Source of the DNA: Verrucomicrobia bacterium UBA2281
Lineage (GTDB): Bacteria > Verrucomicrobiota > Kiritimatiellia > CAIQIC01 > Lenti-01
Assembly (NCBI GenBank): GCA_002347655.1
Contig: DDWR01000020.1
Location: 76,155-140,154, forward strand
Length of the DNA stretch: 64,000 nt
Reading direction: 5' to 3'
Shown here: in pieces, positions 42,801 through 62,226 of the stretch
Layout: every line of letters begins with the position of its first letter
Position numbering within the stretch: the first letter of the stretch is position 1
Translations under genes and position numbers: made by a program
Notes under the pieces: generated by a model
Seen by the model: the letters and a program-made list of their open reading frames with translations, nothing else
What the model was told of the DNA's origin: nothing
Databases searched by the model: none

Positions 42801-44436
42801 GGCGACGGAACTGGGCGAGGCTTTCTACCGGGCGGTCCTGCAGGACGGCGCGGGCGAGCTGGGGCCGGCGTTCCTGAAAGCCCGCCGTTCCCTGCCGGCC
42901 ACGCTGTTCACGAAGGACACGATCGCGGTCTACAATCTGCTCGGCGATCCGGCGCTGAAGATCGCGGGCAACGACCCGGCGGACGAACCCGTTGCGCCGG
43001 CGCAGGTCATCCTCGCGGGGCTTGCGCAGACCTTCGACGGCACGCCGCGCGCCGCCGCCGCGACCACGGTTCCGGCGGGCCTCGCCGTCCGCATTTCCTA
43101 CGCCGGACAGTTGTCGGCGCCGACCGCGGCCGGCACCTATGCCGTGTGCGCGGCCGTGGCCACCGTGGGCTACGAAGGCTTCGCCACCGGCACCCTGACG
43201 GTGGCCCGGGCGCCGGCCGCCGTGACGCTCTCCGGACTGGAACAGGTTTACGACGGTACGCCGCGCGCCGCCGCCGCGACCACGGTGCCGGCCGGATTGG
43301 GGCTTGAATGGACCTATGCCGGCGATCCGAAGCCGCCGGTCGCGGCCGGAACGCATGAAGTCGTCGCGACGGTGGCGGACGCCAACTACTCCGGCGCGGC
43401 AACCGGCACGCTGGTGGTGGCCCAGGCGCCGGCCGCGGTGACGCTCGCGGACTTGGAACAGGTCTACGACGGTACGCCGCGCGCCGCCGCCGCGACCACG
43501 GTTCCGGCCGGCCTAACGGTCGCGTGGACCTATGACGGCGATCCGGAACCGCCGGTCGCGGCCGGCACCTATGAAGTCGTCGCGACCGTGGCCGAGGCCA
43601 ACTATTCCGGCGCGGTCACGGGACTCCTGACGCTGGCCCGGAAACCGGCCGGCATCGTGCTGGGCAACTTGCAGCAAACCTGCGACGGCACGCCGCGGCA
43701 CGCGACCGCGACTACCGACCCGGCCCACTTGGCCGTGGACTTCACCTACGACGGTCGGCCGCTGGCCCCGACGACAGCCGGCAGCTATGCCGTCGTTGCC
43801 GCGATCGGCGATGCGAACCATGCCGGCGGCGCCACGGGCACGCTCGTGGTTGCGCGCGGCGTCGCGGAAGTCGCGCTCCGCGACCTCGCGCACGTGTACG
43901 ACGGGGCGCCCAAATGCGCGGCGGCGACGACTCGGCCGGCCGGCCTGCCGGTGCGGGTGACCTACGATGGATGGGACGCTCCGCCGTCGGCCGCCGGCAC
44001 CTACGAAGTCGTCGCCACCGTCGTGGATGAAAATTTCACGGGTTCCGCCACGGGCACGCTGGCCATCTTGGAGATCGTCGATCCGTTCGAGCGCTGGCTG
44101 GAAACCCAAAGCCTGGATCCGCTGGACGTCCGCATGGCCTGGGACGAGGATGGCGACGGCGATGGGCAAACCACCTGGGAAGAATATTTGGCCGATACCG
44201 ATCCGGCGGATTCCGAAGTTCTCTTCGCGGTCGAGGGGTACTATGCCGAAGACACCAAGGCGATCCACCTGACGTTCCCGGCCAGTCCAAACCGCTACTA
44301 CCAACTCGAGTATTCGACCAACCTGTTTGCCCCCACCCGGGTCCTCGATCTGGGGTGGGGCACCACCGGCTATTTTGCCACGAACGCTCCCGGCCAATGG
44401 TTTGGAACGATCCGGGTCCGGATGGATCCACCTTAG
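33817..44436 (+). CDS. giant secreted multidomain surface protein (about 3,540 aa): signal peptide, DUF11 domain, about 20 SdrD-B-like Ca-binding beta-sandwich repeats, GEVED domain, peptidase-C25 (gingipain)-like domain, six MBG repeats, conserved C-terminal module
   Basis: ATG 33817 (MRKRSTFRIGRCSWCAMAAALVLAGPVWG, signal-like); the track starts at TTG 33775. Repeated GDTVW(R/K)D.N.(N/D)G.QD..E.G..GV.V.LY....G......T.TD..G.Y.F..L..G.Y.V units. ENGEVEDY. HG/Cys motifs of C25 (..INYVGHGDIKNL.., ..ATLTCLAARYE..). (YDGTPR..AAGTYEVVATV..NY.G.ATGTL)x6. Confidence 0.8.
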   Translation: MRKRSTFRIGRCSWCAMAAALVLAGPVWGGNPDGDLRVEIITAYNLVVDSNAESPSTYAPKSAYIGAKFCNDGANALTNVWAYIGDLDAGTPGTYPSRAHPPLVGPLPGGEFALVHEGGTMGANDATRYVGTIEPGECVTVYWLVSYPQLDENGDAVWGPSIKPDDDLWLEYDVWATARDGGAYLQADDSRTLTCRNEISAMANKIWPNGANKVPQEYKDLLQQYAPLWTNTSAVAEPGAILRTEGIWYDLGNVGDGFDNDGDLVPDRNAWLQPVGDPDLFDPSCFRLVRTYAMVIVKLNDGTEQVIVVEDQLYFTQIPANNRGAVGYVMYEFIAIGSGCVSTLTPYQEVASGFDNEKFNGDYGAPGQTLTGGTSLLAIAKTADPTLTRPGSNVAYTVTYTNSGPDPSGRPDIGLPVVIQDAIPTGTVYVAGSATAANVLPQGVGSYTVYFSTNHGLTWSLTEPAIATNVTDVQWWLSDPLPPGGTGTVKFSVTVKNPWPYPSPVVPNTSGLSFGNTTPFLWAHAQTLLLGNNALGDTVWRDDGEGGGLLGNQLQDGGETGITGVTVRLYYDLDGDGGADYLFATTNTGASGYYTFTNLPDGHFVVVVDAADPDVPFGYTPTTPTAFPIALDPARTNVNPVVDWTSDFGFAPALTLVKTWTSTNAVREGQLIGYNLTVSNSLPGDGTGSGSPATYFAWASTGGANYKNTEWVDYWNAYTPPGPDGVYCSNQFAGPTTVLSLTNFTVGAQLGEATTVSLVIPILMVPPIGGDDTVTIDVRTKSPSESRFTETYLATNLVNGVWTIPMTGIYDWAWADFDTNAVVTLTAKKNAGGTAGGWILVDAVGFKIESDQTVGVAGGTTTLDPVPLVDRYDPARLQFVSAQPPESRVVSNGTGTIYWDNVGPIYPGGTSTVAVTFKLLEPPNNTNAVVTNTTWVTNAYFQGGAQANNATSSVVVTQFPAATVGDYVWRDLDGDGIQDAGEPGVPNVAVSITPPAGIDLGNGLGAAITNWTDENGYYLFESIPTTGIYTVRVVTATLPGGTGVNTFDEDGVLNSQTAVYLDIYANGTNNLHLTTDFGYTLPSTIEGTIWHDYDRGQEAYREAGEDWMTNVTVYLCASPSPCGPDASIATNVTTTNGYFQFTGNFIGTYTVYVATNSGMLSNGSWKISFDTDGTNTPNVAAVTVPLGGTGRADFSYFRTGPYRIGDTVFYDWNSDGVQNVESEGGISNVTVYLYEDANGNGVVDAATDAFVASTVTATNGYYLFTNLFATNTYLVIVDRQDPDLPANYIVTADPDAVKDARSVVTIVNADDFDQDFGFWPYGNGAIGDTVWKDVNADGIQLGYQEPGIAGVRVTLYYEANGTWWPLRSMDTDANGMYLFDSLPDGNYRVAVDDADADLPVDALGNAYYPSTPVFHDATISGGNVYLDADFGFAPYGAIGDTVFWDLNRNGDQDFNDPGVAGVDVYLYADANGNGIYDAGETLVATETTDATGFYVFSGLLPDRYVVVVETASGPLAGTDPTADPQSDGLACDDPLNVVPCDDQCGWTLAPAQIFMGADFGYAPRGVIGDTLWIDTNGNGVRDENELGIPYVDVILYSNGVAIATNATDADGYYGFSGLVDFANYGVRVATNDVDFPAGLTNTWTADGTFDNYATNIVMSGGAVTSIGGYPCTDCDLNVDFGYRYAGNNSLSGTIGLDAPPYDGLMNGLNPSGPGAGESPYAGVPVTLYLWNDDGDGILEAGETVQIGTKTTDANGDYAFTGLPNGDGNDKYVVASPAPESYLTLTTTNGSIAGVAVFSTTNLQGYAVSARLAVDVAANVTNMDFAYASQKAYDYGDLPESYKTLLSDGARHVVPPTPNLYLGAGVDTEQNGAPSTGADGDDLAGTDDEDGVVQIVSSTWRTGTAGGSVEVTVGAGSGWLLGYIDFNGDGDFVDAGEMVCNLAVSNAGGNGVGVYTNAFTVPAGTFSATSSTPLYARFRIVPSRPLFPELAYAGTAENGEVEDYLWHLAGLGDYVWYDVDGDGVQDAGEPPIVGVRVFADLNDDGVWQTTEPSATTDSNGLYGIGGLVPGTYSVRVDTSTLPAGVTPTYDLDGIGTPHQASAEITALDQFVATVDFGYAPPVNIGDRVWFDANRDGIQNASETNGLYEIPVALLDTNGNVVAETATDSEGNYLFANMPTGTYLVRFDLSVFTTNEMLSPSKVGSDDAIDNDWVSGNASDYAWTAPFSVSGGEDYLDVDLGVATRSPTRAELAEVWGEWVENEGRVVWRTDAEYSTAGFFVYRVDPETGAESRLNERLALSAFNEGGATYALADPAARAGEERTYRLEEVELSGERRDLGTREIRFAEPAEPTAVSRSALAAPPAKKSVRPKGLAGPSAVLKVHVGREGLYGLGWSAIADGMGLAPADVQALAEAGSLKIARQGEPVPTLVDAARERLLFHARPPVRTWYAHDDVYLVSVGDGLPMVRRDPGAVAGTTAFPTTLRFEENRFLFSMNRMPADFYFWIPVMSGYGELSVTNVPLDLGGYAGGDVALTVRLMGWSSSTNHPDHLARFAFNGVELGEMSFDGQEVAEAHLAVPASIVSNGVNTFAIEGVLQAGRSDSFFVVDWVDASFVRTLAPETIPAAFGANGAAAVSAQAFAEPIAVAVDEMGNPTWIAAENGELPTKAWAVASPTERYAVVAADALPMLAPEPAAADAWFLSAENQIDYLVIASRDLAAAAQELVDYRAGQGLRAGLATFEDACDLLTGGVRTPEAVPALLKRAAATWAVAPRMVVLAGSGHYDYLGINYAEPNHLPPLLVQMPAGVCASDGLLADTGGDELPDLAIGRLPALTAAELTAMIAKIKAYEAGFGSAWQNQLVLAADNADAAGPFLAANQRLADLVETPYAVAERIELDSMAFGLARTNLLRWFNVGAGFINYVGHGDIKNLASEKWLKDTDVAAMVNTSRPPVVATLTCLAARYEVPAVHSLGERLLRQAGGGAVAVLGPSGLSQNAPATELGEAFYRAVLQDGAGELGPAFLKARRSLPATLFTKDTIAVYNLLGDPALKIAGNDPADEPVAPAQVILAGLAQTFDGTPRAAAATTVPAGLAVRISYAGQLSAPTAAGTYAVCAAVATVGYEGFATGTLTVARAPAAVTLSGLEQVYDGTPRAAAATTVPAGLGLEWTYAGDPKPPVAAGTHEVVATVADANYSGAATGTLVVAQAPAAVTLADLEQVYDGTPRAAAATTVPAGLTVAWTYDGDPEPPVAAGTYEVVATVAEANYSGAVTGLLTLARKPAGIVLGNLQQTCDGTPRHATATTDPAHLAVDFTYDGRPLAPTTAGSYAVVAAIGDANHAGGATGTLVVARGVAEVALRDLAHVYDGAPKCAAATTRPAGLPVRVTYDGWDAPPSAAGTYEVVATVVDENFTGSATGTLAILEIVDPFERWLETQSLDPLDVRMAWDEDGDGDGQTTWEEYLADTDPADSEVLFAVEGYYAEDTKAIHLTFPASPNRYYQLEYSTNLFAPTRVLDLGWGTTGYFATNAPGQWFGTIRVRMDPP

Positions 44437-44491: not shown

Positions 44492-44899
44492 ATGTCCGAA
44501 AACAAGCGGCTGAAATACGAAAAACCGATGAGCATCGACTTGGGCCGGGTGGCGCCGATCTTGGGCGACACCTGCAGCGTCGGCAACGGCGCCGCGGATT
44601 GTCCCGCCGGCATGAACAACGCGACGGTGGCGGTGTGCGATCCTTCGGGGTCCGGCGCCGACAACGATTGCCGCACCGGATCGAACGCCGGTACGTTCTG
44701 CTGGCCGACCGGTTCCGGGGCCGTGGTGTATTGTTTGGCGGGTTCCGGGTTCGGGGCGAGTTCGCGGAGCATGCCCGAGCCGACTTCCTCCGGCTATGAT
44801 TCGCCCGACAGCGGCGGGAGCGACCCCTATTCTACGACGTTGCCCGGCAGCGAACCTTCCTCGCCGGACAGCGGTGGAGATCGCTCTTCGGGGCTGTAG
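44492..44899 (+). CDS. candidate RiPP precursor: small Cys-rich peptide with a leader-like N-terminus (KYEKPMSIDLG) and a Ser/Pro/Gly-rich C-terminal tail
   Basis: AAGGAG 7 nt upstream of ATG 44492. 135 aa with no Sec-type hydrophobic signal. Six Cys at about 10-12-residue spacing, each in a Gly/Ser-rich context (CSVGNGAADCPAGMNNATVAVCDPSGSGADNDCRTGSNAGTFCWPTGSGAVVYC). Tail is ..SSGYDSPDSGGSDPYSTTLPGSEPSSPDSGG.. Confidence 0.5.
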   Translation: MSENKRLKYEKPMSIDLGRVAPILGDTCSVGNGAADCPAGMNNATVAVCDPSGSGADNDCRTGSNAGTFCWPTGSGAVVYCLAGSGFGASSRSMPEPTSSGYDSPDSGGSDPYSTTLPGSEPSSPDSGGDRSSGL

Positions 44900-44954
44900 G
44901 CATTTGCGCCGGCGCGCGAGCGATGGGCGCTGGACCAGGATCGGGAGCGCGGCC

Positions 44955-45575
44955 ATGGATCCGAAACGGAATCCACCGGATGAGCCCCTCCGCCGTCGCC
45001 TGTCCCGAATCTCGGCCCCTTGCCGCGGCCACAGCATGCGCGGAACCTTGGCGGAAGGGGACGGCGTGCAGATCGCTTCCGTTCCCTATGATTTGCTCCG
45101 CCGGGGCGACGTGGTGGCCTACCGTTCCGGCGATCAGTTGGTCTTGCATCGGATCGTCGGTCGCCGGGGCGGGTATTGGCGTACGCAAGGCGACGGCAAC
45201 TGGCGGCAGGACGCCGCTCCGCTTGCGCCGGAACGGTTCATCGGAGTCGTGACCGCGCGCGAACGGAACGGTACGACGTCGGTCGTGACGGGCGGCGCCG
45301 CCGGCGCCCGGCGGGCGGCCGGGCTGCATGTCTGGGCCTTCGTGCGCTGGTCGGCATTGACGACGTTCGCGCCGCTGTATCGCCTGCTCCGCGCCAGCCG
45401 AGCGGTTGCGCTGGTCTGGCGACCCCGAATTTTGGCCGTGCGTTTCGCCGCGCCCGGGGGGGCGGTCACCAAGTTCGTCCATCGCGGGCGCTCCGTGGCC
45501 CAATGGGTTCCGCAGGCCGATCGCTGGACGTGCCGGAAGCCCTACGATCTGTTGCTGTCGCGGCCGGGCCGATGA
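44955..45575 (+). CDS. S24/S26-family serine peptidase (signal-peptidase-I-like; possible leader peptidase)
   Basis: ..CRGHSMRGTLAEGDGV.. (Ser nucleophile box), ..RRGDVVAY.., ..LHRIVGRRGG.., ..TQGDGNW.. No obvious N-terminal TM anchor. Start choice (ATG 44955) uncertain; the in-frame ORF opens at 44796. Confidence 0.5.
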   Translation: MDPKRNPPDEPLRRRLSRISAPCRGHSMRGTLAEGDGVQIASVPYDLLRRGDVVAYRSGDQLVLHRIVGRRGGYWRTQGDGNWRQDAAPLAPERFIGVVTARERNGTTSVVTGGAAGARRAAGLHVWAFVRWSALTTFAPLYRLLRASRAVALVWRPRILAVRFAAPGGAVTKFVHRGRSVAQWVPQADRWTCRKPYDLLLSRPGR

Positions 45576-46810
45576 GCCCGGCCCTTCCGCCCGCCGGGCC
45601 GTCCGGCGCTGAAATGAACCTGCTGTGCGCCTGCGCGAGTCCGGCCTATGCCGCGCAAACGGCGGAGTTCTTTGACCGCGGCGGCTCGGTTTCCTGGCCC
45701 CGGTTCGTGGCCTTGGCGACCAACCACCACTTGCTGCCGCTGGTCCACCGCGCGCTCAAAGCCGTTCCGGAACGCGTGCCGGCCCAGTGGTTGGCCCGGT
45801 TGCGGGAATCGCAGACCGCCATCGCGGCCCATAACCTCCGGGCGTGCGCCACGTTGCGGCGGCTGCAGAAACGGTTGGAAGCGGATGGAAACCGGCTGGT
45901 CCCCGTCAAGGGGCCGGCCTTGGCGCTGCTGGCCTTTGGCGACGTCGCGCTGCGCCAGTTCGAGGATCTGGATCTGATCGTGCGCCGGGCCGAGCTGCTG
46001 CGGGTCGTCGCCATCCTCGAACAGGAAGGTTTCCGTCTGCGGGAACTGGCCGCCGGCGTCGATCGCGCCCGCTATCTGGAAACGCTGCAAAACTGGTCGC
46101 TGGAAAAGCCGGGCTTTCCCCCGCTCGATCTCAAGCCGGTGCTCATTTCCCATGCGCTGTGCGGGCCGGCTTCCGCCGATTTCATGGCGGCCGCTTGCCG
46201 CCAAATTCCAAACGCCGCGTTTCCTGGCCTGTCGGCTCCCGGTCCGGCCGAGATGCTGCTGGCGGTCTGCCTCGATGGGGCCAACGAAATGTGGATCAAG
46301 CTTTCGGCGGTGGCCGACGTCGGGGCGTTGATCGCGAAGCATGCGGACGTGGACTGGGCGCGGTATTTGGCCGAAGCCAAACGCCTAGGGCACCGGCGCA
46401 GCCTGCTGGTCGGGGCGGCCCTTGCCGAAGACCTGCTGGGCGCGGTTCTGCCGGCGGCCTTTCGTGAAGGCCTTCGCAACGACCCGGCGGCCCGGCGATT
46501 GGCGGAGCAGGTGGCCGCCCGCCTGCGGTCCGCGGCGCCCCGGCAGAACCTTGCTTTTCGCCAGAGCGTGTTTGCGCTTCGGACGCGGGAACGGTTCCGC
46601 GATCGGTGGCGGTTCCTCCGGCGGCTGCTGTTCGTGCCGGGCGCCTATGAATTCACCCGTTGGCCTTGGCCGCGCGCGCTGCAGCCGCTGTATTCGCTGG
46701 TCCGGCCGCTTCGATTGGCCTGGACCGTCGCGGTGCGCGGGGGCCGGGCCGATCGATTGACGGTTTTGCCGGCGCATGCGAAATTGGCGCCCGGCGGAAG
46801 CAACCCATGA
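45572..46810 (+). CDS. nucleotidyltransferase-family protein (NTP_transf_5 / PF14907-like, the kind associated with lasso-peptide and HprK-related peptide-modification loci)
   Basis: ATGA overlap at 45572. ..LVPVKGPALALLAFGDVALRQFEDLDLIV.. (nucleotidyltransferase core). 412 aa. Confidence 0.55.
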   Translation: MSPALPPAGPSGAEMNLLCACASPAYAAQTAEFFDRGGSVSWPRFVALATNHHLLPLVHRALKAVPERVPAQWLARLRESQTAIAAHNLRACATLRRLQKRLEADGNRLVPVKGPALALLAFGDVALRQFEDLDLIVRRAELLRVVAILEQEGFRLRELAAGVDRARYLETLQNWSLEKPGFPPLDLKPVLISHALCGPASADFMAAACRQIPNAAFPGLSAPGPAEMLLAVCLDGANEMWIKLSAVADVGALIAKHADVDWARYLAEAKRLGHRRSLLVGAALAEDLLGAVLPAAFREGLRNDPAARRLAEQVAARLRSAAPRQNLAFRQSVFALRTRERFRDRWRFLRRLLFVPGAYEFTRWPWPRALQPLYSLVRPLRLAWTVAVRGGRADRLTVLPAHAKLAPGGSNP

Positions 46811-48606
46811 ATACGGCGAAGAAACGATGGCACCATCTGGCCCAGGCAACCGGACTGGTCTGGCGCAGCGCGCGCCCGTGGACGCTCTTGCAAGGAGGGG
46901 TGGTCGTGGCGCAGGGCTTGTTGCCCGTGGCCTCGCTCTATTTGATCCGCCAGGTCGTCGATGCCGTTGGCCGGTTTCTCGCCCAGGCGCCCGGCGACAA
47001 GGATCCCGGGCCGTTGCTGGCGTTGTTGCCGTGGGTGGGCGGGGTGGTGGTGGTCGGCTGGATCCTGCGGGCCGGTTCGGGGATCGTCGCCGAAGCGCAG
47101 GCCGAAGCCGTCGCCGACCACGTGCAGGGTGCCCTGCAGAAGAAATCCGCCGAAATCGATCTGGCCTACCACGAAACGGCGGCCTGGCACGACCAGATGC
47201 GCTTGGCGCAGTCCGAAGCCATGACGCGCCCCGTCGGCATCGTGCGCAATCTGACGCAACTGGGCAGCGGGGTGCTGGTTTTGGGATCGGTCGTCGGCGT
47301 TTTGGGGCTGTCGCAGGGATTCCTGCTGCCGGTGCTCTTGGCGGCAGCGCTGCCGGGCGCCGGGGCCCGGATCTGGAATTCGCGCCGTTGGCATGCCTGG
47401 CGGGTGGCGCATAGCCCGGCGGAACGGCAAGCCGGCTATCTGCACTTGCTGCTGACGTCGTTTCCGTTCGCGAAAGAGATCCGCCTGCTGGGAACCGCCG
47501 GCGAATGGCGTCGCCGGTTCGGCGCGGTCCGCGCCGAACTCCGCCGGAGCCGCCTGGCTTTCGGCCGCCGCCGCGCGGCCATCGAGATCGCCGCGGACGG
47601 GGTCTCGGCGGTCGCCATCTTGGGCGGTTTGGGACTGATCTATCTGCGGATTTCGGGGAATGCGATGACCTTGGGCGATCTGGCGATGCTGTACGGCGGG
47701 TTCCAGAAAGGCAAATCCGCCTTCGCGGGCGTGCTGGGCAGCCTGGCGGCGTTGTATGAGGACGCCTTGTTCATCGGCCACTTCTACGATTTCCTGAACT
47801 TGCCGCATCAGGTCCGTTCACCGGCCGAGCCAAAACCCGTGCCCCGCCGGATCGTGCAAGGTTTCCGGCTGGAGCACGTTTCGTTCCGGTATCCGGGGTG
47901 CGATCGCGATGCGCTGCAAGACGTCACGGCCGAGATCCGCGTGGGCGAACAAGTGGCGCTGGTGGGGGAAAACGGTTCGGGCAAAACGACGCTGGTGAAA
48001 CTGCTGTGCCGCCTGTACGACCCGACCGCGGGCCGGATCCTGCTGGACGGCGTGGATCTGCGCGAGTTCGCGCTGGAGGATTTGCGCACCGCGTTCAGCG
48101 TTCTGTTCCAGGATTTCGGCCGCTACCAGATGACGGCCGAGGAAAACGTGCGCTGGGGGGACGTCGCGGTGCCGGCGGGCGATCCGCGGATCGCGGAGGC
48201 CGTGCGCCGGGGCGGCGCCGAGGCGGTCGTCGCGCAGCTGCCCCAAGGCCTGCAAACCCAGCTGGGGCGTTTGTTCAAGGGCGGCCTGGAGCTCAGCGAG
48301 GGCCAATGGCAGCGGCTGGCCCTGGCCCGCGCATTCCTCCGCGCCGCGCCGATCCTGATGTTGGACGAACCGACCAGTTCCCTCGACGCCAAGGCGGAGC
48401 GGGAATTGCTGGCAACGGTGCTGGCCGGCAGCCAGGGCAAGACCACGGTCATCGTGAGCCATCGGCTCTCGACCGTCCAAGCGGCCAGCCGGATCCTGGT
48501 CTTGGCCGACGGGCGCCTGGCGGAGACCGGTACCCATGCGGAACTGTTGCGGGCCGGCGGGGCCTATCCGGCGCTGTTTGCCCTGCACGCGCCGGATTCG
48601 GCCTAG
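46807..48606 (+). CDS. ABC exporter, fused permease plus ATPase (type I exporter, RiPP/lipid-exporter-like)
   Basis: ATGA overlap at 46807. 6-TM N-terminal domain, Walker A (GENGSGKTT), signature (LSEGQWQRLALARA), Walker B (ILMLDEPTSSLD), H-loop (VIVSHRL). Confidence 0.8.
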   Translation: MNTAKKRWHHLAQATGLVWRSARPWTLLQGGVVVAQGLLPVASLYLIRQVVDAVGRFLAQAPGDKDPGPLLALLPWVGGVVVVGWILRAGSGIVAEAQAEAVADHVQGALQKKSAEIDLAYHETAAWHDQMRLAQSEAMTRPVGIVRNLTQLGSGVLVLGSVVGVLGLSQGFLLPVLLAAALPGAGARIWNSRRWHAWRVAHSPAERQAGYLHLLLTSFPFAKEIRLLGTAGEWRRRFGAVRAELRRSRLAFGRRRAAIEIAADGVSAVAILGGLGLIYLRISGNAMTLGDLAMLYGGFQKGKSAFAGVLGSLAALYEDALFIGHFYDFLNLPHQVRSPAEPKPVPRRIVQGFRLEHVSFRYPGCDRDALQDVTAEIRVGEQVALVGENGSGKTTLVKLLCRLYDPTAGRILLDGVDLREFALEDLRTAFSVLFQDFGRYQMTAEENVRWGDVAVPAGDPRIAEAVRRGGAEAVVAQLPQGLQTQLGRLFKGGLELSEGQWQRLALARAFLRAAPILMLDEPTSSLDAKAERELLATVLAGSQGKTTVIVSHRLSTVQAASRILVLADGRLAETGTHAELLRAGGAYPALFALHAPDSA

Positions 48607-48678
48607 TTGCCTGCACGTAATTCCATTTTAACAGGAGCATCGTTGACATTTAAGCCGGACAGATGTCAGATAACCCAT

Positions 48679-50010: not shown

Positions 50011-50023
50011 GAGGGCGGGCGGC

Positions 50024-50584
50024 ATGAGCGCGAAATTCGTTAAATGGGTGGCGCTGGCGGTGTGCGCGGCGGGTCTGGATGCGCAGGCGGCGTTCGATCC
50101 GCCCACGCGGGCGGAACTCAAGGCCGCGGCCGAAGACCTCTCGAAAGTGGTCGAACTGCTGCAAGACGCCTCGATCGACCAGGCGGCGGAAGTCGCCCGG
50201 GACGTCGTGATCGAGATCGTCAAGTTGGGCCTCGATCAAGCCGAACGCGACAGCCGGGCATCGTCCCTCGTCGGCTATCTGTTCATGACCTTTCCGGAAA
50301 GCGACTGGACGGACCTGGCGATCGTGTTCGGCCGCATGGTGGCGGCCAGTCCGACGGCCAGCATGGATCCCTCGTTGTTGTCGGCGCTCCAGCGGGCGAT
50401 CATCGAAGTGTGCGGGGTGGGGGTCGCCAGCGAGTTCGGCAACGCCTACAATCTGGCCATGCTGACCGTGGCCGGTGCGCCCGGCGGCGGCAAGAACGTG
50501 CCGCCCCAGCCGCCGCCGCCGCCGGTGGCGTTGCCGTTGCGGCCGCCCATCGCCACCCCTTACGAAGCCCAGCGCCTGCGCTGA
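50024..50584 (+). CDS. hypothetical secreted protein with Pro-rich C-terminus
   Basis: Signal peptide (MSAKFVKWVALAVCAAGLDAQAA) and ..PPQPPPPPVALPLRPP.. I recognise no family. Confidence 0.4.
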   Translation: MSAKFVKWVALAVCAAGLDAQAAFDPPTRAELKAAAEDLSKVVELLQDASIDQAAEVARDVVIEIVKLGLDQAERDSRASSLVGYLFMTFPESDWTDLAIVFGRMVAASPTASMDPSLLSALQRAIIEVCGVGVASEFGNAYNLAMLTVAGAPGGGKNVPPQPPPPPVALPLRPPIATPYEAQRLR

Positions 50585-52233: not shown

Positions 52234-52238
52234 GCAGG

Positions 52239-53525: not shown

Positions 53526-53766
53526 GGCGAACCCATCCTTTCCGGATGTTCCCAAATCAATATAGGCGACCGGCGGGTTTCGCACAAGGCAAAAGATCGG
53601 GATCGCGCTCGGCGAACCGCCCAAAAAAATCGGCCCGGTGAAGCGTTTTTGCGTTGAGCTTTCATTCCGTTGCCGTTACCTTGTTAACAGAATTGGCCAG
53701 TGCTTTGTGGTCTGGCGGTTGGCTTGGGAATCGGCGAGGCGGAAAATCCGCTCCGGGAGTGCGCAA

Positions 53767-56700
53767 ATGAAGTCTGGGAATGTCGTGCGGCGGGGATGTC
53801 AACGGGTGCTGGTCGGACTGTGTCTGGCGGGGTGGCTCGTGCCGGGCTCCGTGCGGGGCGAAGCGATGTTGCAGTTCTTCAACGCGAGTTGGAACGAAAT
53901 CGCCGACAAGGTGCCCGAACTGGCGGAAGCGGGCTATTCGTCGCTCTGGCTGCCGCCGCCGGCCAAGGCCAACGGCGGCTATTCGGTGGGCTACGACCTG
54001 TTCGATCCGTTCGACCTGGGCAACAAGAACCAGCGCGGCACGATCGCCACGCGTTACGGCACCAAGGCGGATCTGCACAACCTGATCGAGCTGTGCCACC
54101 GCTTCGGCATCCGGATCTACTTCGACAACATCATGAACCACCGCGCCTACGACGTGCCGGGCTACAACGAAACCACGCCGATCGACGTCTTCCCCGGGAT
54201 GGTGGCCGAGGATTTCCACCTGCGCACCACCTCCGACGGCTTCTACCGCAAATGGGACAACACCCGCGACTGGCAGGACGCCTGGCAGGTGATGCATCTG
54301 GGGCTGTCGGACCTGCTGGACATCGCCCACGAGACGCCCAACCAGAATTTCGGCCCCACCGAAGGCAGTTGGCACGAGAAACCCTCCATCGTGCGCCATC
54401 CGCAGAACCCGGAATACTACGATTGGCACCCCACGCTGGGCTGGGTCGGCTTCAACAGCACGTCGATCACCGAATCGGTCATCGCCGCGAATCCCGATTT
54501 CTTCAAGGAAGACGTCGGCGCCTACCTGTGCCGCAACGCGCGCTGGATGCTGGAGACCACGAAAGCCGACGGGTTCCGCCTCGACGCCGTCAAGCACGTG
54601 CCGGACTACTTCTTCGGGGCGTTCGGGGACGACGCCAGCGACGCCGGCTATCTGGGCCAGATCCAGTGGCAGTTCAACATGACCCATGGCTACAGCGATT
54701 GGAGCAACCACCGCGACAGCAACTTCAGCACGGAAATCCCGCGCGACGACGCGCTGCTCTTCGGCGAACATCTCGGCCAGCCGCCCGGCTACGGCGGCTA
54801 TATCTCCGCCGGGATGCGGCTGGTGGACAACGATCTGCGCAACCAGCTCAACTGGCGCTTCAGCGCGGGCGATCTGTGGGGCTACGACAACGCCGGCGCG
54901 GGCGGCTTCGATTCCGCCGTGGGCGTGATGCATGCCCAGAGCCACGACAACGACTACGTGGACCGCAAGGAACTCCAGCACGCCTACTACTTCCTGCGCG
55001 GCGGGCTTGGCCTGCTCTACACCGACGGCAACCGCCACGCGGAAACCCTCTCCGGCAGCGGCGGCGCTTTCCCGCGCTGGGCCAGCACCGCGTTCCTCGG
55101 CCAGTGGGGCCAGCCCCAAATCCCCGAACTCCTGAAGATCCACGAGAACGGCGCGCGCTACACCCATCACGGCATGGGCACGCACTGGGACGGCGCGGTC
55201 ATCGCCTGGGAGCGCGGCGGGACCTTCCCCTGGAACACCTTCCTGACGGTGTTCAATTCGAAGTGGGCGGATTGGCGCTCCATTCCGACCCAGGGCACGT
55301 TCCCGGACGGCGCCTACCTCTACAACTACGTCCGCGCCTACCAGTGCTACTATACCGGCAGCGGGCCGGCCGCCGACTACGTCTACGCCAGCGATCTGTA
55401 CAACGTCAACCAGCCCCCCAACAGCTATTCGGTCTGGGGCTACAAGAATCCCGACCCGAGCGGCCTCTGGTCCGGCGACGCGATTTCGATCACCGACGAC
55501 GGCCAGCTGGCCGAAACCATCTCCGTGGACCGCCGGGACGGGCCCGACGGCGACGCGGAGTTCAACCCCTACAACTATTCCAACCGCGGCTTTCCCGACG
55601 GCGCCACGCCGACGCCCTACAGCTATCGCCAGTCCATCCCGCGCATTACCAAGGGCACCAACGTCGTCTTCACGGCCCGCGTGGACGGCTCGGCCGACAA
55701 CGTCCTGATGCGCCTCGACGGCGGCATGGACCTGAACGGGGCCACCCACGCGCTGGGCGACCTGCGCGACAACCCGCCGGCGCTGAGCCACGACATGTAT
55801 TTAGGCTTCGAAGGCGTCGATTTCGTCCAGCGCATCTGGCCGGAAAAATTCGCGGCGACGGATTCCGCGCGCGCCAAGATCGCCTCGCCGGGCGCGGAGA
55901 CCTACGTCGCCACGCTCAACACCGCCTTCACCACGAACCTCTCGACGGGCAGCAACGACTGGGACGGCACCTACACGGTGTCCTGGATCTGGCACGATCC
56001 CAACGGCACCCAGGACGGCGATCGCGCGGGCAACGCGCAGTTCTGGCCGCCGGTCACCAATGCGGGCGGCTCCACGATCTACGTCGGCGTCAAGACCCCG
56101 AAGGTCGCCGGCAACCGCGTCCACCTCTATTACACCACCAACGGCACGGCTTGGCCCGAGGGCGCCGGCGGCAAGGGCGCCAATGCCGATACCCGCGTGG
56201 TCGAAGGGGCCTGGGTGGGCGACGGCAGCGATTCGTCCGATTGGTGGGAACTCCAAGTCCCCGCCATGCCCGCCGGGACGGTCTTCCGCTACAAGATCGG
56301 TTCGGCGCGCCAACAGGGCTACGACGGCAACGGGTGGGACGTCGTCTGGCCGGGCAGCGCCGCCGAGGTCGCCCGGAAGGTCCAGATGCTGGGCGAGTGG
56401 GAAACGGACGCCCAGAACCTGAAGACCAAATCCTACCACCGGCACAACAACTACAACAGCTGGACGACCAACGGGCTTCCGGACGGCTTCCACCTGCTGA
56501 CGGCGCGGGCGTTCCTGGACCGCGACGATGGCGCCCCGGTCTTCAACACCTTCCGCCAGACGTTCTACCTGGACACGGAAACCCCGCAGGGCTACGTGCA
56601 GTATCCGGCGGCCGACGGCGAGACCTACTACGGCAGCGAGTACGGCTTCATCGTGCGCACCGATCCGACCGCGCGCGAGGTGTGGTATCATATCGACGAC

Positions 56701-59700
56701 AGCAACGCCGACAACGATGGCCCCGGCAACGGCATGGTGTCCGGCAAGGTCGTCTGGGCGCAGGCCTCGACCGTGGGGGCGTGGACCGAGGACATGGCCG
56801 AGGATACGGCCTTCCCGAAGATCTGGCGCTTCAACTACGACCGCATCCCGGCCACGGGCACCGCCACGATCCGCGTCCGCCTGCGCGAATGGTCCAGTTC
56901 CGCCACCAACGCCTGGTCGGCCACCAACCCGACGAACGACAACGCTGCGGCCGGCCACTTCACGCAACTGGAGCGCACCCTGATCACCCGCGGCCCGGCG
57001 GAAGAATTTTTCTACGACTGGCCCGAGACGGACGGCGCGATGGTGGAGGCCGGCTGGCAACTGCGCATCCACTACACCGCCAGCATGGCCGCCGGCCTTT
57101 CGGACCAGGAAATCTACGACCGCATCAAGGTCTACGTGAACGCGTCCGCCAACGGCTCGACCAACCGCGGCGAACTGGTGGATGCCGCCGGGTTGAACTT
57201 CACGCACCAGTGGAACTGGGGCGCGGCCGGCGAAGGCCTCAACGTCCTGGGCTTCGACATGCCCAACGTCTACAACGGCCAGGACGGGTGGCTCTACGGC
57301 GTGCGCGTCGAGTTCACCAACAGCAACGGCTACGGCGTTTTCGACAAGGCCGCCGTGCGCCTCGTGCAGCACCGCGGGCCCCTGCTGCCCACGCTGATCA
57401 TCACCACGCCGCCCGAAACCGACAGCGACGGCGCGAAATACGTCATCCGGATGGAAGACGTGCCGGCCAGCGTGCTGGCCACCAATCCGGCCCTGCGGCA
57501 AACGCCCATCGTGGTGCTGACCGACGCCAACGCCACCAATCTGGCCATCCAGTTCAACAGCCCGACGGACTACGTGGGCGCGGTGGTCCTCGACAACGTC
57601 GTCACCAACGGGGACAGCCTGACCTGGACCCACGTCTGGACCGTCACCAACGCCGGCGCCTACCGCTTCACGGCCACCGTCTGGGCCGATACCAACGGCA
57701 CCGAACTGAGTTCCGCCGTCAACTCGGCCACGCGCAACGCCACCGTCCAGTTCCGCGAACTCGTCGCCACGACCAACGCGGCCGATGCGGATTGGGACGA
57801 CGACGGCATCCTCAACACCAACGAGGTTTCCGCCTGCCCGCTGCCGGACAGCGCCGCCGAATACTGGACGCAGACCGAAGTCTTCAACTACTTCGCCCGC
57901 GGCAAGTCCATGGAGAACAGCCCCGACACCGACGGCGACGGCCTGCCCGACGGCCTCGAACTGGGTTACCGTGGGCCCGCCGCCGGCACCGACGAGGCCA
58001 CCGACACCGACGGCGACGGCTACCCGAACTTCCGGCCCGACCTCGATCCGCCGTTCTACAACACCTTGGACAATCTCGGCACCGTGAAGGGCATCGACGG
58101 CGCCGGCACCGGCGCCAGCCGCACCAAGCTCGCGCAAGGCACGACCACCGATCCGACGAATCCCGACACCGACTACGACGGGCTGCCCGACGGCGTCGAG
58201 GACGCCAACCGCAACGGGTGGGTCGACGGCGACGGCGCCAGCCTGCCGACCAATTGGAGCCCGTTCCTCGAGCGCAACTGGCCCGACGGCCTCATCAACA
58301 GCGGCGAGACCTGGCTGGAAACCTCCCCGAACCTCGCCGACAGCGACCGCGACGGCCTCAGCGACGGCTACGGCGAGGACAAGGACTTCAACGGCCGCAT
58401 CGCCGGCGACGTCAACGACAACCGGATCTGGGACGCCGGCGAAACCTGGACGGAAACCGATCCGCTGAATCCCGATACCGACGGCGACGGCCTGCCCGAC
58501 GGCTGGGAAGTCCGCTACGGCCTCGACCCCCTCGACGCCACGGGCCTCAACGGGGCCGACGGCAACCCCGACGGCGACACCTATCTCGACGTGGAAAGCG
58601 TCGAACAGCCCTACGTCAACCTGCTCGAATACCAGAACGGCACCAACCCCCGCGAAGCGGACTCCCTCGAGAATCCCGGCGGCGAAGGCTCCATCGTCGT
58701 CGGCCAGGGCGCGATTCTCGGCACGGTCAACGACGTCGACTACTACCGCGAATTCATGGATTGGACCTTGGCCGACCTGCTCGCGCTGGACAACTACAAC
58801 CAGGGCGGCAATTCCGCCGACATCTACCGCCGCGGCGACGGATTCGACAGCTCCCGCGACATGGTGGCGTTCTATTTCCGCGACGGCGGCGCGACCGGCG
58901 CCGGCGGCGACGGCAAGCTCTACTTCCGCGTGGACTTCGACGACCTGAAGGCCAATGCCGAGCAAAGCGCGCTCAACGTCTACGTCGCCATCAACTTCGG
59001 CACCTACGGGGAAGGCGGCGAGGTCAACCTGCCCGACCAGGTCAACGCCGGCAGCCTGATGCAGTGGAACGCCTGCGTCGGCGTGTACGACGGCGGCAGC
59101 GGCGTGCTCTACGTGGACGGCAACAAGAACAACAACACGACCGACATCGGCGGCGATCTCGCCGCCGCCGGCGTGGCCGCCGTCCCGGGCGGGATCGTGG
59201 GCACCTATTTCGACTCCACCCTCGACGCCGTGGCGTGGAGCATCGACCGCGCCGCCCTGGTGGCCGCGGGGTGGGGCGGCGATCCGGACACCCTCCTGTT
59301 CCAGGTCTACACCACCAGCGACTTCACCGGCGACGACGGCGGCAGCGGCGACAAGGGCGGCCTCAACGACTTCACCGACACCATCGGCGACGACTGGCTG
59401 TGCTCCGACTACTACCAGGACTACAACTACGTCGCCGCCAACGGCTACTACCGGTACTGCATCGGCCGCACCGCCGGCGGCTACGTGTTCAACAACGTCG
59501 GCCAGCACGCCAAGGTGGCCTTGCTCGCGCACGGCAACCAGGCCGTCGAGCCCGGCGCGACCATCCAGAACATCGTGGACAACGGCAGCGGCGCGGGCTA
59601 CCAGCGCCCCGTCAAGATCCACAACATCTATTCCAACGCGGCGCTCAACCTGCACATCACGCCGACGCTGGCCATGTCCCTGGAATGGGCCAAGGTCGGC

Positions 59701-62226
59701 ACCTCCAACACGTGGTATTCCGGGCCGGGGCTCAACGAGCAGATCCGCGCCGGCGTGGCGGCGGGCACCTTCCGCCTGCTCGGCAGCACCTTCTCCGACC
59801 ATATCCTCCCGTACTTCGACGCGGCCTACAACCGCGCCAACGTGGAACTCGCCGCCGACGTCCTCAACGACGTCTACGGCGGGTCGCCCGCCAGCGGCGT
59901 GGTCTCCACCAACGTGTTCTGGATTCCCGAGCGCGTCGCCGACGTCGAGACCCTCAAGCAGGTCAAGACCAACCTGGGCTTCCGCGCCACCATCCTCGAC
60001 CAGACGCCCCATCTGCTGGAGTGGTACGGCCGCGAGGAAGCCCTCGGCAACAACGCCTACAAGATCAACCGCCTGTGGCTCGAGCATGCCGGCGGCCCTT
60101 GGCCGTCCGTCGATGCCTTCGTCATCGCCACCGCCGCCAACAACTACCGCTACGTGAACACCGACGGCGGCTTGCCGACGGAACTGCGCCAGCTCTTCAA
60201 CCGGCGCGCGCGCTCCGGCGCCGACCAGATCTCCACCATCTTCTACATGTGGGAAGACCTCTCCGCCAACGCCAACGCCGACGCCTACGACGCCAACCTG
60301 CGCTGGATGGCCAACCATCCCTGGATCCAGGTCGTCGCCCTCGACGATGCCCTCGACGGCGAAACCGTCGAACGCAACCTGACCGCCGCCGCCGGCCCGC
60401 AGGCCCAGGACTGGGTGCACCACGCTTCCAACCAGGACTACGACAACTGGTTCTTCGGCTCCGGCCGCCACGAAGGCCTCGCGCCGAAGCTGTTCGAGGT
60501 GCGCCTCGGCACCAATCTGCCCTCCGGCACGCCGTACGGCTCCATGACCAACGGCATCCTCTCCAACGCGTGGAAGACCGTGCGCGGGCTCACCAACGCG
60601 ACCGTCCGGCGTCTCGCCCAGCAGGCGCTCTTCGCCTCCACGTTCGAAACCGCCTTCCACAACGAGAGCAACGGCGACCTGACCCGCTGGAGCTTCGGCG
60701 AATACGCCGCGCCCGCCACGGACTGGCAAGGCCTGCAGGGCTTCGCCTGGAAGGCGCAGGGCCAGACCCGCATGGCCGCGCTCTACGGCGCCGTGGACGA
60801 CTGGGCCAACCGCACGCTTTCTTCCGTCGAGGTGGTTTCCGCCGACGTCGATCTCGACGGCGAGAACGAATATGTCCTGCGCAACGACGCGGTCATGGCT
60901 CTCTTCGAACGCAGCGGCGGCCGGATGGTCGGCGCCTGGCACAAGAACGGCACCAACGTCGTCCAGATGATCGGCAACTTCGTCTCCATGCCCGATTCCG
61001 GCACCGAAGACGAAGGCACCGACAACGTCAGCGGCGGCGGGACGGGGGCCTACCGCACCTCCGCCCTCAAGGATTGGTGGAACGGCTCCGCCAACCGCGT
61101 CAACGATCTCTACGCCTTCTCCGCCGGCGCCAACTCCGTCACCTTCTCCAACGCGGGCATCGTCAAGACCGTCGCGCTGGCCAATGCCGCCACCAACGTC
61201 TTCGCGGTGAACTACGCCATGCCCGGCCAGACGCTCTACGTCCGCAACGGCCTCTCGCCCGATCTCGACGCCCTGCTGCGCACCGGCCAGCGCAACCTGG
61301 CCGAGGAAGCCACCGGCTCTTCCGCGCTGGCGGTGTCCGCCATCCGGCCCGCCGACGGCCTCGCCAGCACCGTCAAGCTCGCCGTCGCCACCGGCGCCAT
61401 CAATACGGCCGCCACGGACATGTCCAACACCTGGAACACCGTCAACCTGCGCAACCAGGCCCAGACCCGGCAGGTGGAACTCGTCGGCACCAACGCGCTG
61501 GCCTTCACTCTCGAACTGGCGTCTTCCGCGACCGGCGCCGACGAACCGCCGGTCCTCGAGTTCACGCCGTCCGGCCCGTACGTGATGCCCGTGGGCGCGA
61601 CCTCGTCCTTCACCGTCGCGGCCATCGACTACGACAGCCCCGCCACCACGCTGACGGCTTCCAATCTGCCGGTCGGCGGCTCCAAGCTGGCCGCGTTCGA
61701 CGCCAACACCGGCGCGTTCTCCTGGCACGTGACCGCCCTCGGCCAGGGCGGCCGCACCAACGACCAGGTCTACACCAACACGGTCTTCACCGCCTTCGAC
61801 GGCACCAGTTCCACCGCCGCCACGGTCGTCATCACGGTTCCGTGGGACGCCGACGCCGACGGCATGCCCGACGACTGGGAACTGCTCAAGTTCGGCACCG
61901 TCACCAATGCCGCCGCCGGCGATTGGGACGGCGACGGCTTCCCCAACTACAGCGAATGGGTCGCCAACACCGATCCCGACGCTCCCGGCAGCTACGTCGG
62001 CTGGGAAAACCGGATGGTGCTTTCGCCCAACTCCGTCGCGCTGACCTTCCAGTCCATCGTCGGCCGCACCTACAAGATCGAAGGCCTCGACGAACTGTTG
62101 CCCGGCACCAACTGGCAGCAATTGGACATCGTCGTCAGCACCAACGACCCGATGACCTGGGTGGACACCAACGCCTGGCCGGACGTCCGCAACTACCGCA
62201 TCAAGATCCCGCTGGCCCAGCCCTGA
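53767..62226 (+). CDS. giant secreted protein (about 2,820 aa): signal peptide, N-terminal GH13 alpha-amylase-family catalytic domain, long beta-rich region, thrombospondin-type-3-like Ca-binding repeats, and the same C-terminal module as the first giant protein
   Basis: ATG 53767 (MKSGNVVRRGCQRVLVGLCLAGWLVPGSVRG). GH13 regions (GYSSLWLPPP, FDPFDLG, GTKADLHNLIELCHRFGIRIYFDNIMNHR, GFRLDAVKH). Repeated DTDGDGLPDG / NPDTDYDGLPDG / DSDRDGLSDG motifs. C-terminal module is alignable with 44080-44436. Confidence 0.8.
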   Translation: MKSGNVVRRGCQRVLVGLCLAGWLVPGSVRGEAMLQFFNASWNEIADKVPELAEAGYSSLWLPPPAKANGGYSVGYDLFDPFDLGNKNQRGTIATRYGTKADLHNLIELCHRFGIRIYFDNIMNHRAYDVPGYNETTPIDVFPGMVAEDFHLRTTSDGFYRKWDNTRDWQDAWQVMHLGLSDLLDIAHETPNQNFGPTEGSWHEKPSIVRHPQNPEYYDWHPTLGWVGFNSTSITESVIAANPDFFKEDVGAYLCRNARWMLETTKADGFRLDAVKHVPDYFFGAFGDDASDAGYLGQIQWQFNMTHGYSDWSNHRDSNFSTEIPRDDALLFGEHLGQPPGYGGYISAGMRLVDNDLRNQLNWRFSAGDLWGYDNAGAGGFDSAVGVMHAQSHDNDYVDRKELQHAYYFLRGGLGLLYTDGNRHAETLSGSGGAFPRWASTAFLGQWGQPQIPELLKIHENGARYTHHGMGTHWDGAVIAWERGGTFPWNTFLTVFNSKWADWRSIPTQGTFPDGAYLYNYVRAYQCYYTGSGPAADYVYASDLYNVNQPPNSYSVWGYKNPDPSGLWSGDAISITDDGQLAETISVDRRDGPDGDAEFNPYNYSNRGFPDGATPTPYSYRQSIPRITKGTNVVFTARVDGSADNVLMRLDGGMDLNGATHALGDLRDNPPALSHDMYLGFEGVDFVQRIWPEKFAATDSARAKIASPGAETYVATLNTAFTTNLSTGSNDWDGTYTVSWIWHDPNGTQDGDRAGNAQFWPPVTNAGGSTIYVGVKTPKVAGNRVHLYYTTNGTAWPEGAGGKGANADTRVVEGAWVGDGSDSSDWWELQVPAMPAGTVFRYKIGSARQQGYDGNGWDVVWPGSAAEVARKVQMLGEWETDAQNLKTKSYHRHNNYNSWTTNGLPDGFHLLTARAFLDRDDGAPVFNTFRQTFYLDTETPQGYVQYPAADGETYYGSEYGFIVRTDPTAREVWYHIDDSNADNDGPGNGMVSGKVVWAQASTVGAWTEDMAEDTAFPKIWRFNYDRIPATGTATIRVRLREWSSSATNAWSATNPTNDNAAAGHFTQLERTLITRGPAEEFFYDWPETDGAMVEAGWQLRIHYTASMAAGLSDQEIYDRIKVYVNASANGSTNRGELVDAAGLNFTHQWNWGAAGEGLNVLGFDMPNVYNGQDGWLYGVRVEFTNSNGYGVFDKAAVRLVQHRGPLLPTLIITTPPETDSDGAKYVIRMEDVPASVLATNPALRQTPIVVLTDANATNLAIQFNSPTDYVGAVVLDNVVTNGDSLTWTHVWTVTNAGAYRFTATVWADTNGTELSSAVNSATRNATVQFRELVATTNAADADWDDDGILNTNEVSACPLPDSAAEYWTQTEVFNYFARGKSMENSPDTDGDGLPDGLELGYRGPAAGTDEATDTDGDGYPNFRPDLDPPFYNTLDNLGTVKGIDGAGTGASRTKLAQGTTTDPTNPDTDYDGLPDGVEDANRNGWVDGDGASLPTNWSPFLERNWPDGLINSGETWLETSPNLADSDRDGLSDGYGEDKDFNGRIAGDVNDNRIWDAGETWTETDPLNPDTDGDGLPDGWEVRYGLDPLDATGLNGADGNPDGDTYLDVESVEQPYVNLLEYQNGTNPREADSLENPGGEGSIVVGQGAILGTVNDVDYYREFMDWTLADLLALDNYNQGGNSADIYRRGDGFDSSRDMVAFYFRDGGATGAGGDGKLYFRVDFDDLKANAEQSALNVYVAINFGTYGEGGEVNLPDQVNAGSLMQWNACVGVYDGGSGVLYVDGNKNNNTTDIGGDLAAAGVAAVPGGIVGTYFDSTLDAVAWSIDRAALVAAGWGGDPDTLLFQVYTTSDFTGDDGGSGDKGGLNDFTDTIGDDWLCSDYYQDYNYVAANGYYRYCIGRTAGGYVFNNVGQHAKVALLAHGNQAVEPGATIQNIVDNGSGAGYQRPVKIHNIYSNAALNLHITPTLAMSLEWAKVGTSNTWYSGPGLNEQIRAGVAAGTFRLLGSTFSDHILPYFDAAYNRANVELAADVLNDVYGGSPASGVVSTNVFWIPERVADVETLKQVKTNLGFRATILDQTPHLLEWYGREEALGNNAYKINRLWLEHAGGPWPSVDAFVIATAANNYRYVNTDGGLPTELRQLFNRRARSGADQISTIFYMWEDLSANANADAYDANLRWMANHPWIQVVALDDALDGETVERNLTAAAGPQAQDWVHHASNQDYDNWFFGSGRHEGLAPKLFEVRLGTNLPSGTPYGSMTNGILSNAWKTVRGLTNATVRRLAQQALFASTFETAFHNESNGDLTRWSFGEYAAPATDWQGLQGFAWKAQGQTRMAALYGAVDDWANRTLSSVEVVSADVDLDGENEYVLRNDAVMALFERSGGRMVGAWHKNGTNVVQMIGNFVSMPDSGTEDEGTDNVSGGGTGAYRTSALKDWWNGSANRVNDLYAFSAGANSVTFSNAGIVKTVALANAATNVFAVNYAMPGQTLYVRNGLSPDLDALLRTGQRNLAEEATGSSALAVSAIRPADGLASTVKLAVATGAINTAATDMSNTWNTVNLRNQAQTRQVELVGTNALAFTLELASSATGADEPPVLEFTPSGPYVMPVGATSSFTVAAIDYDSPATTLTASNLPVGGSKLAAFDANTGAFSWHVTALGQGGRTNDQVYTNTVFTAFDGTSSTAATVVITVPWDADADGMPDDWELLKFGTVTNAAAGDWDGDGFPNYSEWVANTDPDAPGSYVGWENRMVLSPNSVALTFQSIVGRTYKIEGLDELLPGTNWQQLDIVVSTNDPMTWVDTNAWPDVRNYRIKIPLAQP

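Follow-up and report, generated by a model that had tools for sequence, protein, structure and literature searches.

Two giant proteins of a Kiritimatiellia genome end in a TSP3 repeat and FN3-like tail that closes many large secreted proteins of related bacteria

C-terminal tags common to many surface proteins are known from the PEP-CTERM/exosortase and LPXTG/sortase systems, often with exopolysaccharide loci nearby. In the type IX secretion system (T9SS) the tag is a C-terminal domain (CTD; Por_Secre_tail), a small beta-sandwich on diverse Sec-exported hydrolases and adhesins that include C25 proteases, and in the RTX proteins of type I secretion calcium-binding repeats stand just before an uncleaved C-terminal region of giant proteins. 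Here we describe a C-terminal module that bears some likeness to each of these. It was found in a 64,000-nucleotide stretch of DNA from Verrucomicrobia bacterium UBA2281, a member of the Kiritimatiellia (contig DDWR01000020.1, positions 76,155 to 140,154 of the forward strand; hereafter the window), at the ends of the products of two plus-strand genes: giant gene 1 (33775..44436; 3553 amino acids (aa) when read from the listed TTG, although translation probably begins at the ATG at 33817) and giant gene 2 (53638..62226; 2862 aa when read from the listed GTG, with the ATG at 53767 as the probable start).

A first-pass annotation of the window had proposed that the last ~110 residues of these two otherwise unrelated proteins align and form a candidate sorting or anchoring tag. 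The alignment is borne out by BLASTP, by profile-profile comparison and by an independent generic tail profile. When the last 149 aa of each protein were compared by BLASTP, the pair showed 29% identity over 89 aa (E 1e-6), and the remaining, passenger parts of the two proteins gave no BLASTP match at 1e-5 and are indeed otherwise unrelated. Searches with each end against 5.8 billion proteins yielded one small family apiece, which we call A-type (giant gene 1) and B-type (giant gene 2), and alignment of the two family profiles with hhalign gave a probability of 95.6% (E 1.3e-8 over 86 columns), with the direct similarity coming mostly from a thrombospondin type 3 (TSP3) repeat of the bacterial kind and the first beta-hairpin that follows it. 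A generic tail profile, built from sequences belonging to neither family, matched the A-type tail with a probability of 96% (E 2.8e-9 over 42 columns) and the B-type tail with a probability of 98.4% (E 5e-15 over 61 columns). Its only significant matches in the six-frame translation of the window were the two giant C-termini, and phmmer together with the generic-profile scan found no further copy of the module in that translation. Because both tails match the generic profile and are its sole matches in the window, we conclude that the shared block is real and that the tails, though diverged, belong to a single family. The consensus proposed earlier holds for D.DGDG....E....TDP and for (I/V).LTF.(A/S)...R.Y.(L/I)E, and its last element, W..(I/V)R.R, is misaligned, since IRVR of giant gene 1 pairs with YRIK of giant gene 2 in the family alignment. 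Likewise, the block had been given its correct ends (44436 and 62226, the stop codons) and starts that lie one nucleotide out of frame (in frame, 44077 and 61852). Read in frame, the two proteins end ...DPFERWLETQSLDPLDVRMAWDEDGDGDGQTTWEEYLADTDPADSEVLFAVEGYYAEDTKAIHLTFPASPNRYYQLEYSTNLFAPTRVLDLGWGTTGYFATNAPGQWFGTIRVRMDPP and ...DADADGMPDDWELLKFGTVTNAAAGDWDGDGFPNYSEWVANTDPDAPGSYVGWENRMVLSPNSVALTFQSIVGRTYKIEGLDELLPGTNWQQLDIVVSTNDPMTWVDTNAWPDVRNYRIKIPLAQP, each followed by the stop codon.

Both giant proteins thus end in the same two-part module, in which one TSP3 repeat is followed directly by a beta-sandwich of 76-82 aa that resembles fibronectin type III (FN3) domains. The A-type module (118 aa; 44080..44433, plus strand) consists of a helix (DPFERWLE), a TSP3-type calcium-binding repeat (44143..44205; DEDGDGDGQTTWEEYLADTDP) with the motif residues D, D, D, G, E, D, T and P, and a tail of 76 aa (44206..44433) ending ...WFGTIRVRMDPP before the stop codon. 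The B-type module (126 aa; 61846..62223, plus strand) has the same layout, with the helix DADADGMPDDWE, a TSP3-type calcium-binding repeat (61918..61977; GDWDGDGFPNYSEWVANTDP) and a tail of 82 aa (61978..62223) ending ...RNYRIKIPLAQP before the stop codon. The first part of the module shares the DxDxDG...E...TDP calcium-binding motif with bacterial TSP3 repeats (PF18884 TSP3_bac; PF02412 TSP_3), but differs from them in that it consists of one repeat only, fused directly to the tail at a fixed 75-90 aa from the protein end; this TDP-to-end distance is kept in nearly all complete matches. The motif is present without variation in the A-type and B-type families alike, and its residues are invariant in the 33 complete paralogues described below, of which 8 carry a TSP_3 match. 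The C-terminal copy of giant gene 2 scores 19.9 bits against PF18884, under the 25-bit cut-off that an internal copy in the same protein exceeds (28.1 bits), and the C-terminal copy of giant gene 1 has no Pfam TSP3 match and a weak NCBIfam match to the TSP3 region of Amuc_1099.

In appearance the tail is an FN3-type sandwich that lacks the last strand. AlphaFold models built from a 49-sequence alignment predict, for A-type and B-type modules alike, two short helices followed by six strands (pLDDT 89 and 91, respectively). Foldseek searches of the PDB with these models returned weak matches only (E about 0.01, TM 0.4-0.55), and FN3 domains predominate among those that superpose better (root-mean-square deviation about 3 A). 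By sequence profile, the best match in the PDB is 3mpc, an 'Fn3-like protein' (E 1.6e-4). The motifs of the tail family run S.L.i, v.L.W.s..G..Y.lqy..dL, W..l, ...D and (R)FYRV.l..P before the stop codon; in alignment with FN3, 'Y.lqy' falls on strand C and 'FYRV' on strand F, and the tail stops a few residues past the 'FYRV' strand, usually in proline. In the canonical FN3 arrays that our tail profile cross-detects, the 'Y.YRV' of strand F continues into 'A.N..G.S..S...', a segment before which the tail ends. As the protein comes to its end 3-5 residues beyond the counterpart of strand F, the tail would be without the canonical FG loop and G strand. It differs from FN3 in having six predicted strands rather than seven, a strong preference for the extreme C-terminus and no match to PF00041 in either protein at E up to 1. 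Its tandem-array relatives, discussed below, also lack fn3 matches in Pfam, except for a separate N-terminal domain of one protein (P0067), and no model in Pfam-A or NCBIfam matches the tail.

To gauge the size of the family, we searched 1.84 billion cluster representatives with a tail-only profile of 81 positions, which matched 44,288 representatives at E <= 1e-3, 2,730 at E <= 1e-10 and 78 at E <= 1e-30; the first of these counts is not taken as the size of the family, as canonical FN3 domains are cross-detected.

The module also recurs in genomes related to that of the window, and so is not confined to the two giant proteins. A scan with the A-type module of one genome per GTDB species confirmed 163 stretches encoding relatives, from which 77 loci were kept. 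These come from 35 metagenome-assembled genomes (MAGs), mostly labelled Kiritimatiellia or Verrucomicrobiota and including one Lentisphaerae MAG; as many as seven loci lie in one MAG (DAOTNL01) and five in each of three others (CALKWZ01, CAYNSH01 and CAZMOR01), and module-bearing genes are often adjacent to one another. The closest relative among the kept loci, at 91% identity, is in a Kiritimatiellia MAG (locus L001). The fetched loci hold 91 unique tail-bearing open reading frames (ORFs) that reach a stop codon; in every one of them no more than 10 aa separate the tail from the stop, in 58 the tail ends exactly there, and none of the 91 has a second tail copy. The last residue is proline in 72 of the 91, against a crude background of 12%. 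More widely, a terminal proline is seen in about 65-80% of tail-ended proteins (loci L001-L077; codons 44431-44433 and 62221-62223 in the window).

The proteins that carry the module are mostly large (close relatives mostly exceed 1000 aa, and many extend past the 6 kb fetched) and of diverse kinds. Among the 33 complete paralogues we found Peptidase_C25 in 8, Peptidase_S8 in 6, Peptidase_C1 in 6, Exo_endo_phos in 8, LTD in 18, fn3 in 10, MBG_3 in 9 and an alpha-amylase with CBM48 in 1, as well as Endonuclease_1, lectin-like and F5/8-C domains. The domain just upstream of the module belongs to at least three unrelated classes (cadherin-like in 39 cases, MBG_3 in 25, including giant gene 1, and others in about 20, including giant gene 2), and a crude heuristic recognised a Sec-type signal peptide in 37 of 47 complete ORFs. 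These data show that in Kiritimatiellia and other Verrucomicrobiota the module closes a large number of multi-domain proteins, among them proteases, nucleases, amylases and adhesin-like proteins, mostly with a signal peptide. Two further features of the paralogues may be recorded here. The C25 propeptide model matched 6 of the 33. In addition, many A-type paralogues (for example L004 1840-6357 and L012 1753-6357) share a conserved C-terminal region of about 350 aa made up of an FN3 domain, a cadherin-like 'FTATDKDG' domain, a helix 'F..WVEDQGEDP' and the module; giant gene 1 has MBG_3 repeats there instead.

By Pfam, giant gene 1 encodes DUF11, GEVED and CarboxypepD_reg domains, ten SdrD_B domains, a Peptidase_C25 and five MBG_3 domains ahead of the module, whereas giant gene 2 encodes an N-terminal alpha-amylase catalytic domain and the internal TSP3 repeat. 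The Peptidase_C25, of the gingipain family, spans residues 2721-3062 (41935-42960, plus strand). Judged by eye, the N-terminal sequences from the two ATG codons are probable Sec signal peptides (MRKRSTFRIGRCSWCAMAAALVLAGPVWG at 33817..33903 in giant gene 1 and MKSGNVVRRGCQRVLVGLCLAGWLVPGSVRG at 53767..53859 in giant gene 2, both plus strand). The GC content of the window is ~67%, and because of it long spurious ORFs abound; the real giant frames were told from these by the GC content of third codon positions (GC3), which is 0.87 for 33763-44433 and 0.92 for 53566-62223 (both plus strand). By the same measure we rejected as GC-rich artefacts the frame 53700-62366 (plus strand), which overlaps giant gene 2, and the antisense ORFs 35881-43356 and 55801-62382 (both minus strand); antisense and alternative-frame ORFs nested in the giant genes reach about 2200-2900 aa. 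An apparent orthologue of giant gene 2 (locus L078, 2156-10645, on JGI contig Ga0645780_02556) has been called as three successive genes, an alpha-amylase, a GH57 protein with TSP3 and a 214-aa protein containing the module. Our homologue search gave only short 'proteins' because gene calls are fragmented in this way, and we rejected these short database matches as stand-alone small proteins, taking them to be fragments of large genes.

The view that the module is not a PEP-CTERM, LPXTG or T9SS signal holds by sequence, in that no model matches and the motifs are absent. Like the tags of the first two systems, it is common to many candidate surface proteins and lies near exopolysaccharide genes, but neither giant C-terminus has an LPXTG or PEP motif, a hydrophobic transmembrane helix or a basic tail; both are hydrophilic beta-strands ending in proline (...IRVRMDPP and ...IKIPLAQP) and match no NCBIfam model. 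Among the window ORFs scanned, some of which have no family match, none encodes an exosortase. By analogy, the tail may be set beside the T9SS CTD, as a small C-terminal beta-sandwich on diverse Sec-exported hydrolases and adhesins; it differs from the CTD in lacking a sequence match, in its phylum, in the TSP3 repeat that precedes it and in having related domains in tandem arrays. C25 proteases are classic T9SS cargo in Bacteroidota, and their presence among the carriers is a suggestive parallel only. The likeness to RTX proteins lies in the giant size of the carriers, in calcium-binding repeats that immediately precede an uncleaved C-terminal region and in an ABC exporter gene nearby, but the repeats of the module are of the TSP3 and not the RTX type. 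No HemolysinCabind match (RTX nonapeptide repeats) and no autotransporter beta-domain (type V secretion) was found in the Pfam scan of the giant proteins, whose C-terminus is instead an 80-aa sandwich.

We tentatively favour, at somewhat less than an even chance, the reading that the module is a calcium-stabilised C-terminal handle for envelope retention or export recognition. The pattern fits a positional C-terminal tag, in that the module is present in single copy, is always last, follows varied upstream domains on many unrelated exported enzymes of one lineage and has a conserved extreme end. On this reading the proteins would first be exported by Sec, and the module would then serve as a positional handle at the cell envelope, most likely keeping its carrier at the cell surface or on the outer membrane or, alternatively, being the part recognised by an outer-membrane export step. 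In either case the enzymatic and stalk domains would point outward, and the TSP3 repeat, by binding calcium, would keep the fold stable once it is outside the cytoplasm; the neighbouring radical-SAM, nucleotidyltransferase and ABC genes, described below, would not be what reads the module. The cultured relative Kiritimatiella glycovorans has a diderm envelope, and the protein-export systems listed in its genome paper include Sec, Tat and a type II system (PMC5148204). Since a diderm host is accordingly expected here too, carriers of the module would need a way to reach, or to stay on, the surface. Other than that list of export systems, literature searches for the motif, or for a C-terminal sorting domain in PVC bacteria or Kiritimatiellia, returned nothing relevant. 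The idea that the module marks a dedicated secretion or attachment pathway has, then, gained a strictly C-terminal module that recurs on unrelated exported proteins, several per genome, and no linked machinery, and we regard a sorting or anchoring role as partly supported.

Several observations weigh against such a role. The best matches of the tail profile hold tandem copies of the tail-type domain, up to 29 domains by a local count and 41 matched stretches in the search listing, and the domain also occurs at internal positions in other proteins; both kinds of occurrence would be expected of a structural or stalk domain more than of a secretion signal. The arrays, whose named examples among the best matches are from Verrucomicrobiota, end within 12 aa of the C-terminus in 92 of the 148 best matches, and proline follows every unit inside them as well, so the terminal proline may simply mark where a domain ends and have no part in recognition. 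In its second half the A-type tail departs from the generic tail family, and A-type and B-type compared without the TSP3 repeat align weakly (E 0.002 over 27 columns). Finally, the recurrent neighbours of the paralogues are mostly housekeeping genes (ComF-like, AccD, FolC-like and MalQ) together with a subtilase, and a targeting role without co-occurring machinery is unproven. The arrays, the internal copies, the proline at unit boundaries and the lack of any linked machinery would all suit a tail that is purely a structural terminal domain, a spacer or cap beside a common calcium repeat that comes last only through domain shuffling. The FN3-like fold and weak FN3 sequence match, the cross-detection of canonical FN3 by the profile and the longer C-terminal region shared by many A-type paralogues point the same way. 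We consider this explanation the main rival to the handle, though less likely than it, as in the Kiritimatiellia loci every one of the 91 ORFs has its single copy no more than 10 aa from the stop and as the module closes very different enzymes behind unrelated upstream domains; a single-copy, terminal pattern on such varied proteins is not easily accounted for unless being last was selected for. That the weak tail-only comparison betrays a similarity due to chance or composition, from an Asp/Gly-rich repeat in a GC-rich genome, is hardly credible, given that both tails match an independent family profile with no other significant match in the window, that both give confident and similar predicted folds, and that there are 163 confirmed relatives in genomes, of which all those fetched are C-terminal; we take the genome scan, the C-terminal position and the generic-profile matches to refute it.

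Other roles for the tail can be weighed against the same carriers and neighbours. As the carriers are polymer-degrading enzymes and adhesin-like proteins and the window lies in an exopolysaccharide biosynthesis region, the tail could be a distal ligand-binding tip, akin to a carbohydrate-binding module (CBM), that ties the enzymes to a polymeric substrate or to exopolysaccharide made by the cell itself and is no secretion signal; weak partial PDB profile matches do include carbohydrate-binding and discoidin-type domains. We think this improbable, since no CBM family was matched in Pfam and since proteases, nucleases and amylases, which act on substrates with nothing in common, all carry this tail. 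A C-terminal signal of the type I kind, read by the adjacent MsbA/HlyB-like ABC exporter and beta-barrel, would account for the calcium-binding repeats ahead of the C-terminus, as in RTX substrates, for the sub-threshold LssB and HlyB matches of the ABC protein (46660-48606), for the BBP2_2 barrel (48607-50010) and for the retention of their block at giant gene 1 orthologues. It is very unlikely, however, with N-terminal Sec signal peptides on both giant proteins and most paralogues, no RTX repeats and no membrane-fusion protein detected, an ABC protein that scores best as MsbA-like and falls under every cut-off, and no comparable block in the fetched flanks of other paralogues or immediately downstream of giant gene 2. 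A tail of ~80 aa forming a beta-sandwich at the extreme C-terminus of secreted hydrolases, gingipain-family C25 proteases among them, might also be a divergent T9SS CTD. This we regard as highly improbable: the T9SS type A and type B sorting-domain models of Pfam and NCBIfam match neither module at E up to 1, no T9SS CTD is among the top 50 structural matches, and the hosts are Verrucomicrobiota and not Bacteroidota, with no T9SS reported in K. glycovorans, for which the export systems named are those given above (PMC5148204). More speculative, and in our view doubtful, is the reading that the TSP3 repeat and truncated FN3 tail together mark cargo for a route of export across, or attachment to, the outer membrane that has yet to be described in Verrucomicrobiota/Kiritimatiellia, which would make the module a functional analogue of the T9SS CTD in a phylum presumed to lack T9SS. 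A strand of a partner protein might then complete the sandwich at the place of the missing seventh strand, or the free Pro-COOH end might be recognised.

The genes around the giant genes were of interest as the first-pass annotation had suggested that adjacent modification and export genes might recognise the module. This suggestion did not hold up, as those genes travel only with giant gene 1 orthologues. Upstream of giant gene 1 lies a long glycan or exopolysaccharide biosynthesis cluster (1-29086, plus strand), which contains a pyruvyl transferase, a flippase-like gene, several GT1/GT4 glycosyltransferases, an acyltransferase_3, an ATP-grasp, a polysaccharide deacetylase with DUF3473, a Bac_transf, a DegT aminotransferase and a Polysacc_synt_2. 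Directly upstream of giant gene 1, the interval 30999-33460 (plus strand) resembles a SynChlorMet radical-SAM peptide cassette, with a PqqD-like ScmD, an ScmF-like radical-SAM/SPASM gene that scores 331 bits on TIGR04251 (cut-off 400 bits) and an ORF with a weak likeness to ScmC; all family scores in it are below cut-off. Giant gene 1 is followed by a block of five plus-strand genes (44796-50584) encoding a 259-aa protein without known family, NTP_transf_5, the MsbA-like ABC exporter, a permease/ATPase (46660-48606), the BBP2_2 beta-barrel (48607-50010) and a 186-aa protein. The order of this block is conserved only at the giant gene 1 orthologues of three MAGs (L001, L002 and L054), and neither it nor the SynChlorMet-like genes have homologues in the fetched flanks of other module-bearing genes. 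We therefore rejected the adjacent genes as readers of the module, the block being syntenic only with giant gene 1 orthologues and the upstream genes being a SynChlorMet-like cassette, and we rejected the conserved neighbours of the paralogues as export machinery, given that they are mostly housekeeping genes. Nor did the co-occurring secretion or sortase-like system looked for in the fetched neighbourhoods of module-bearing genes appear in linkage with them. Between 50584 and 53638 the ORFs have no family match (52239-53624, minus strand, GC3 0.82, with competing frames at 50818-53493, minus strand, and 50953-52449, plus strand), and a Y-family DNA polymerase gene (IMS, IMS_C; 62796-63998, plus strand) extends beyond the window end.

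The TSP3 repeat and the FN3-like sandwich each belong to known kinds. The truncated tail family, its fixed fusion to a TSP3 repeat and its strictly terminal use across the secreted hydrolases of Kiritimatiellia lie outside Pfam-A, NCBIfam and the literature searched. Should the tail prove to be no more than a structural FN3-like cap, this would be an ordinary finding. As the tail family is large (the 2,730 cluster representatives at E <= 1e-10) and not covered by Pfam-A or NCBIfam, a curated model of it would improve annotation, and would do so for thousands of giant proteins now labelled "hypothetical". Verrucomicrobiota and Kiritimatiellia are important degraders of sulfated and complex polysaccharides, and we know of no described route by which their very large hydrolases and adhesins pass across, or onto, the outer membrane. 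A strictly C-terminal module on proteases, nucleases, amylases and adhesin-like giants offers a concrete and testable handle on this outer-membrane delivery.

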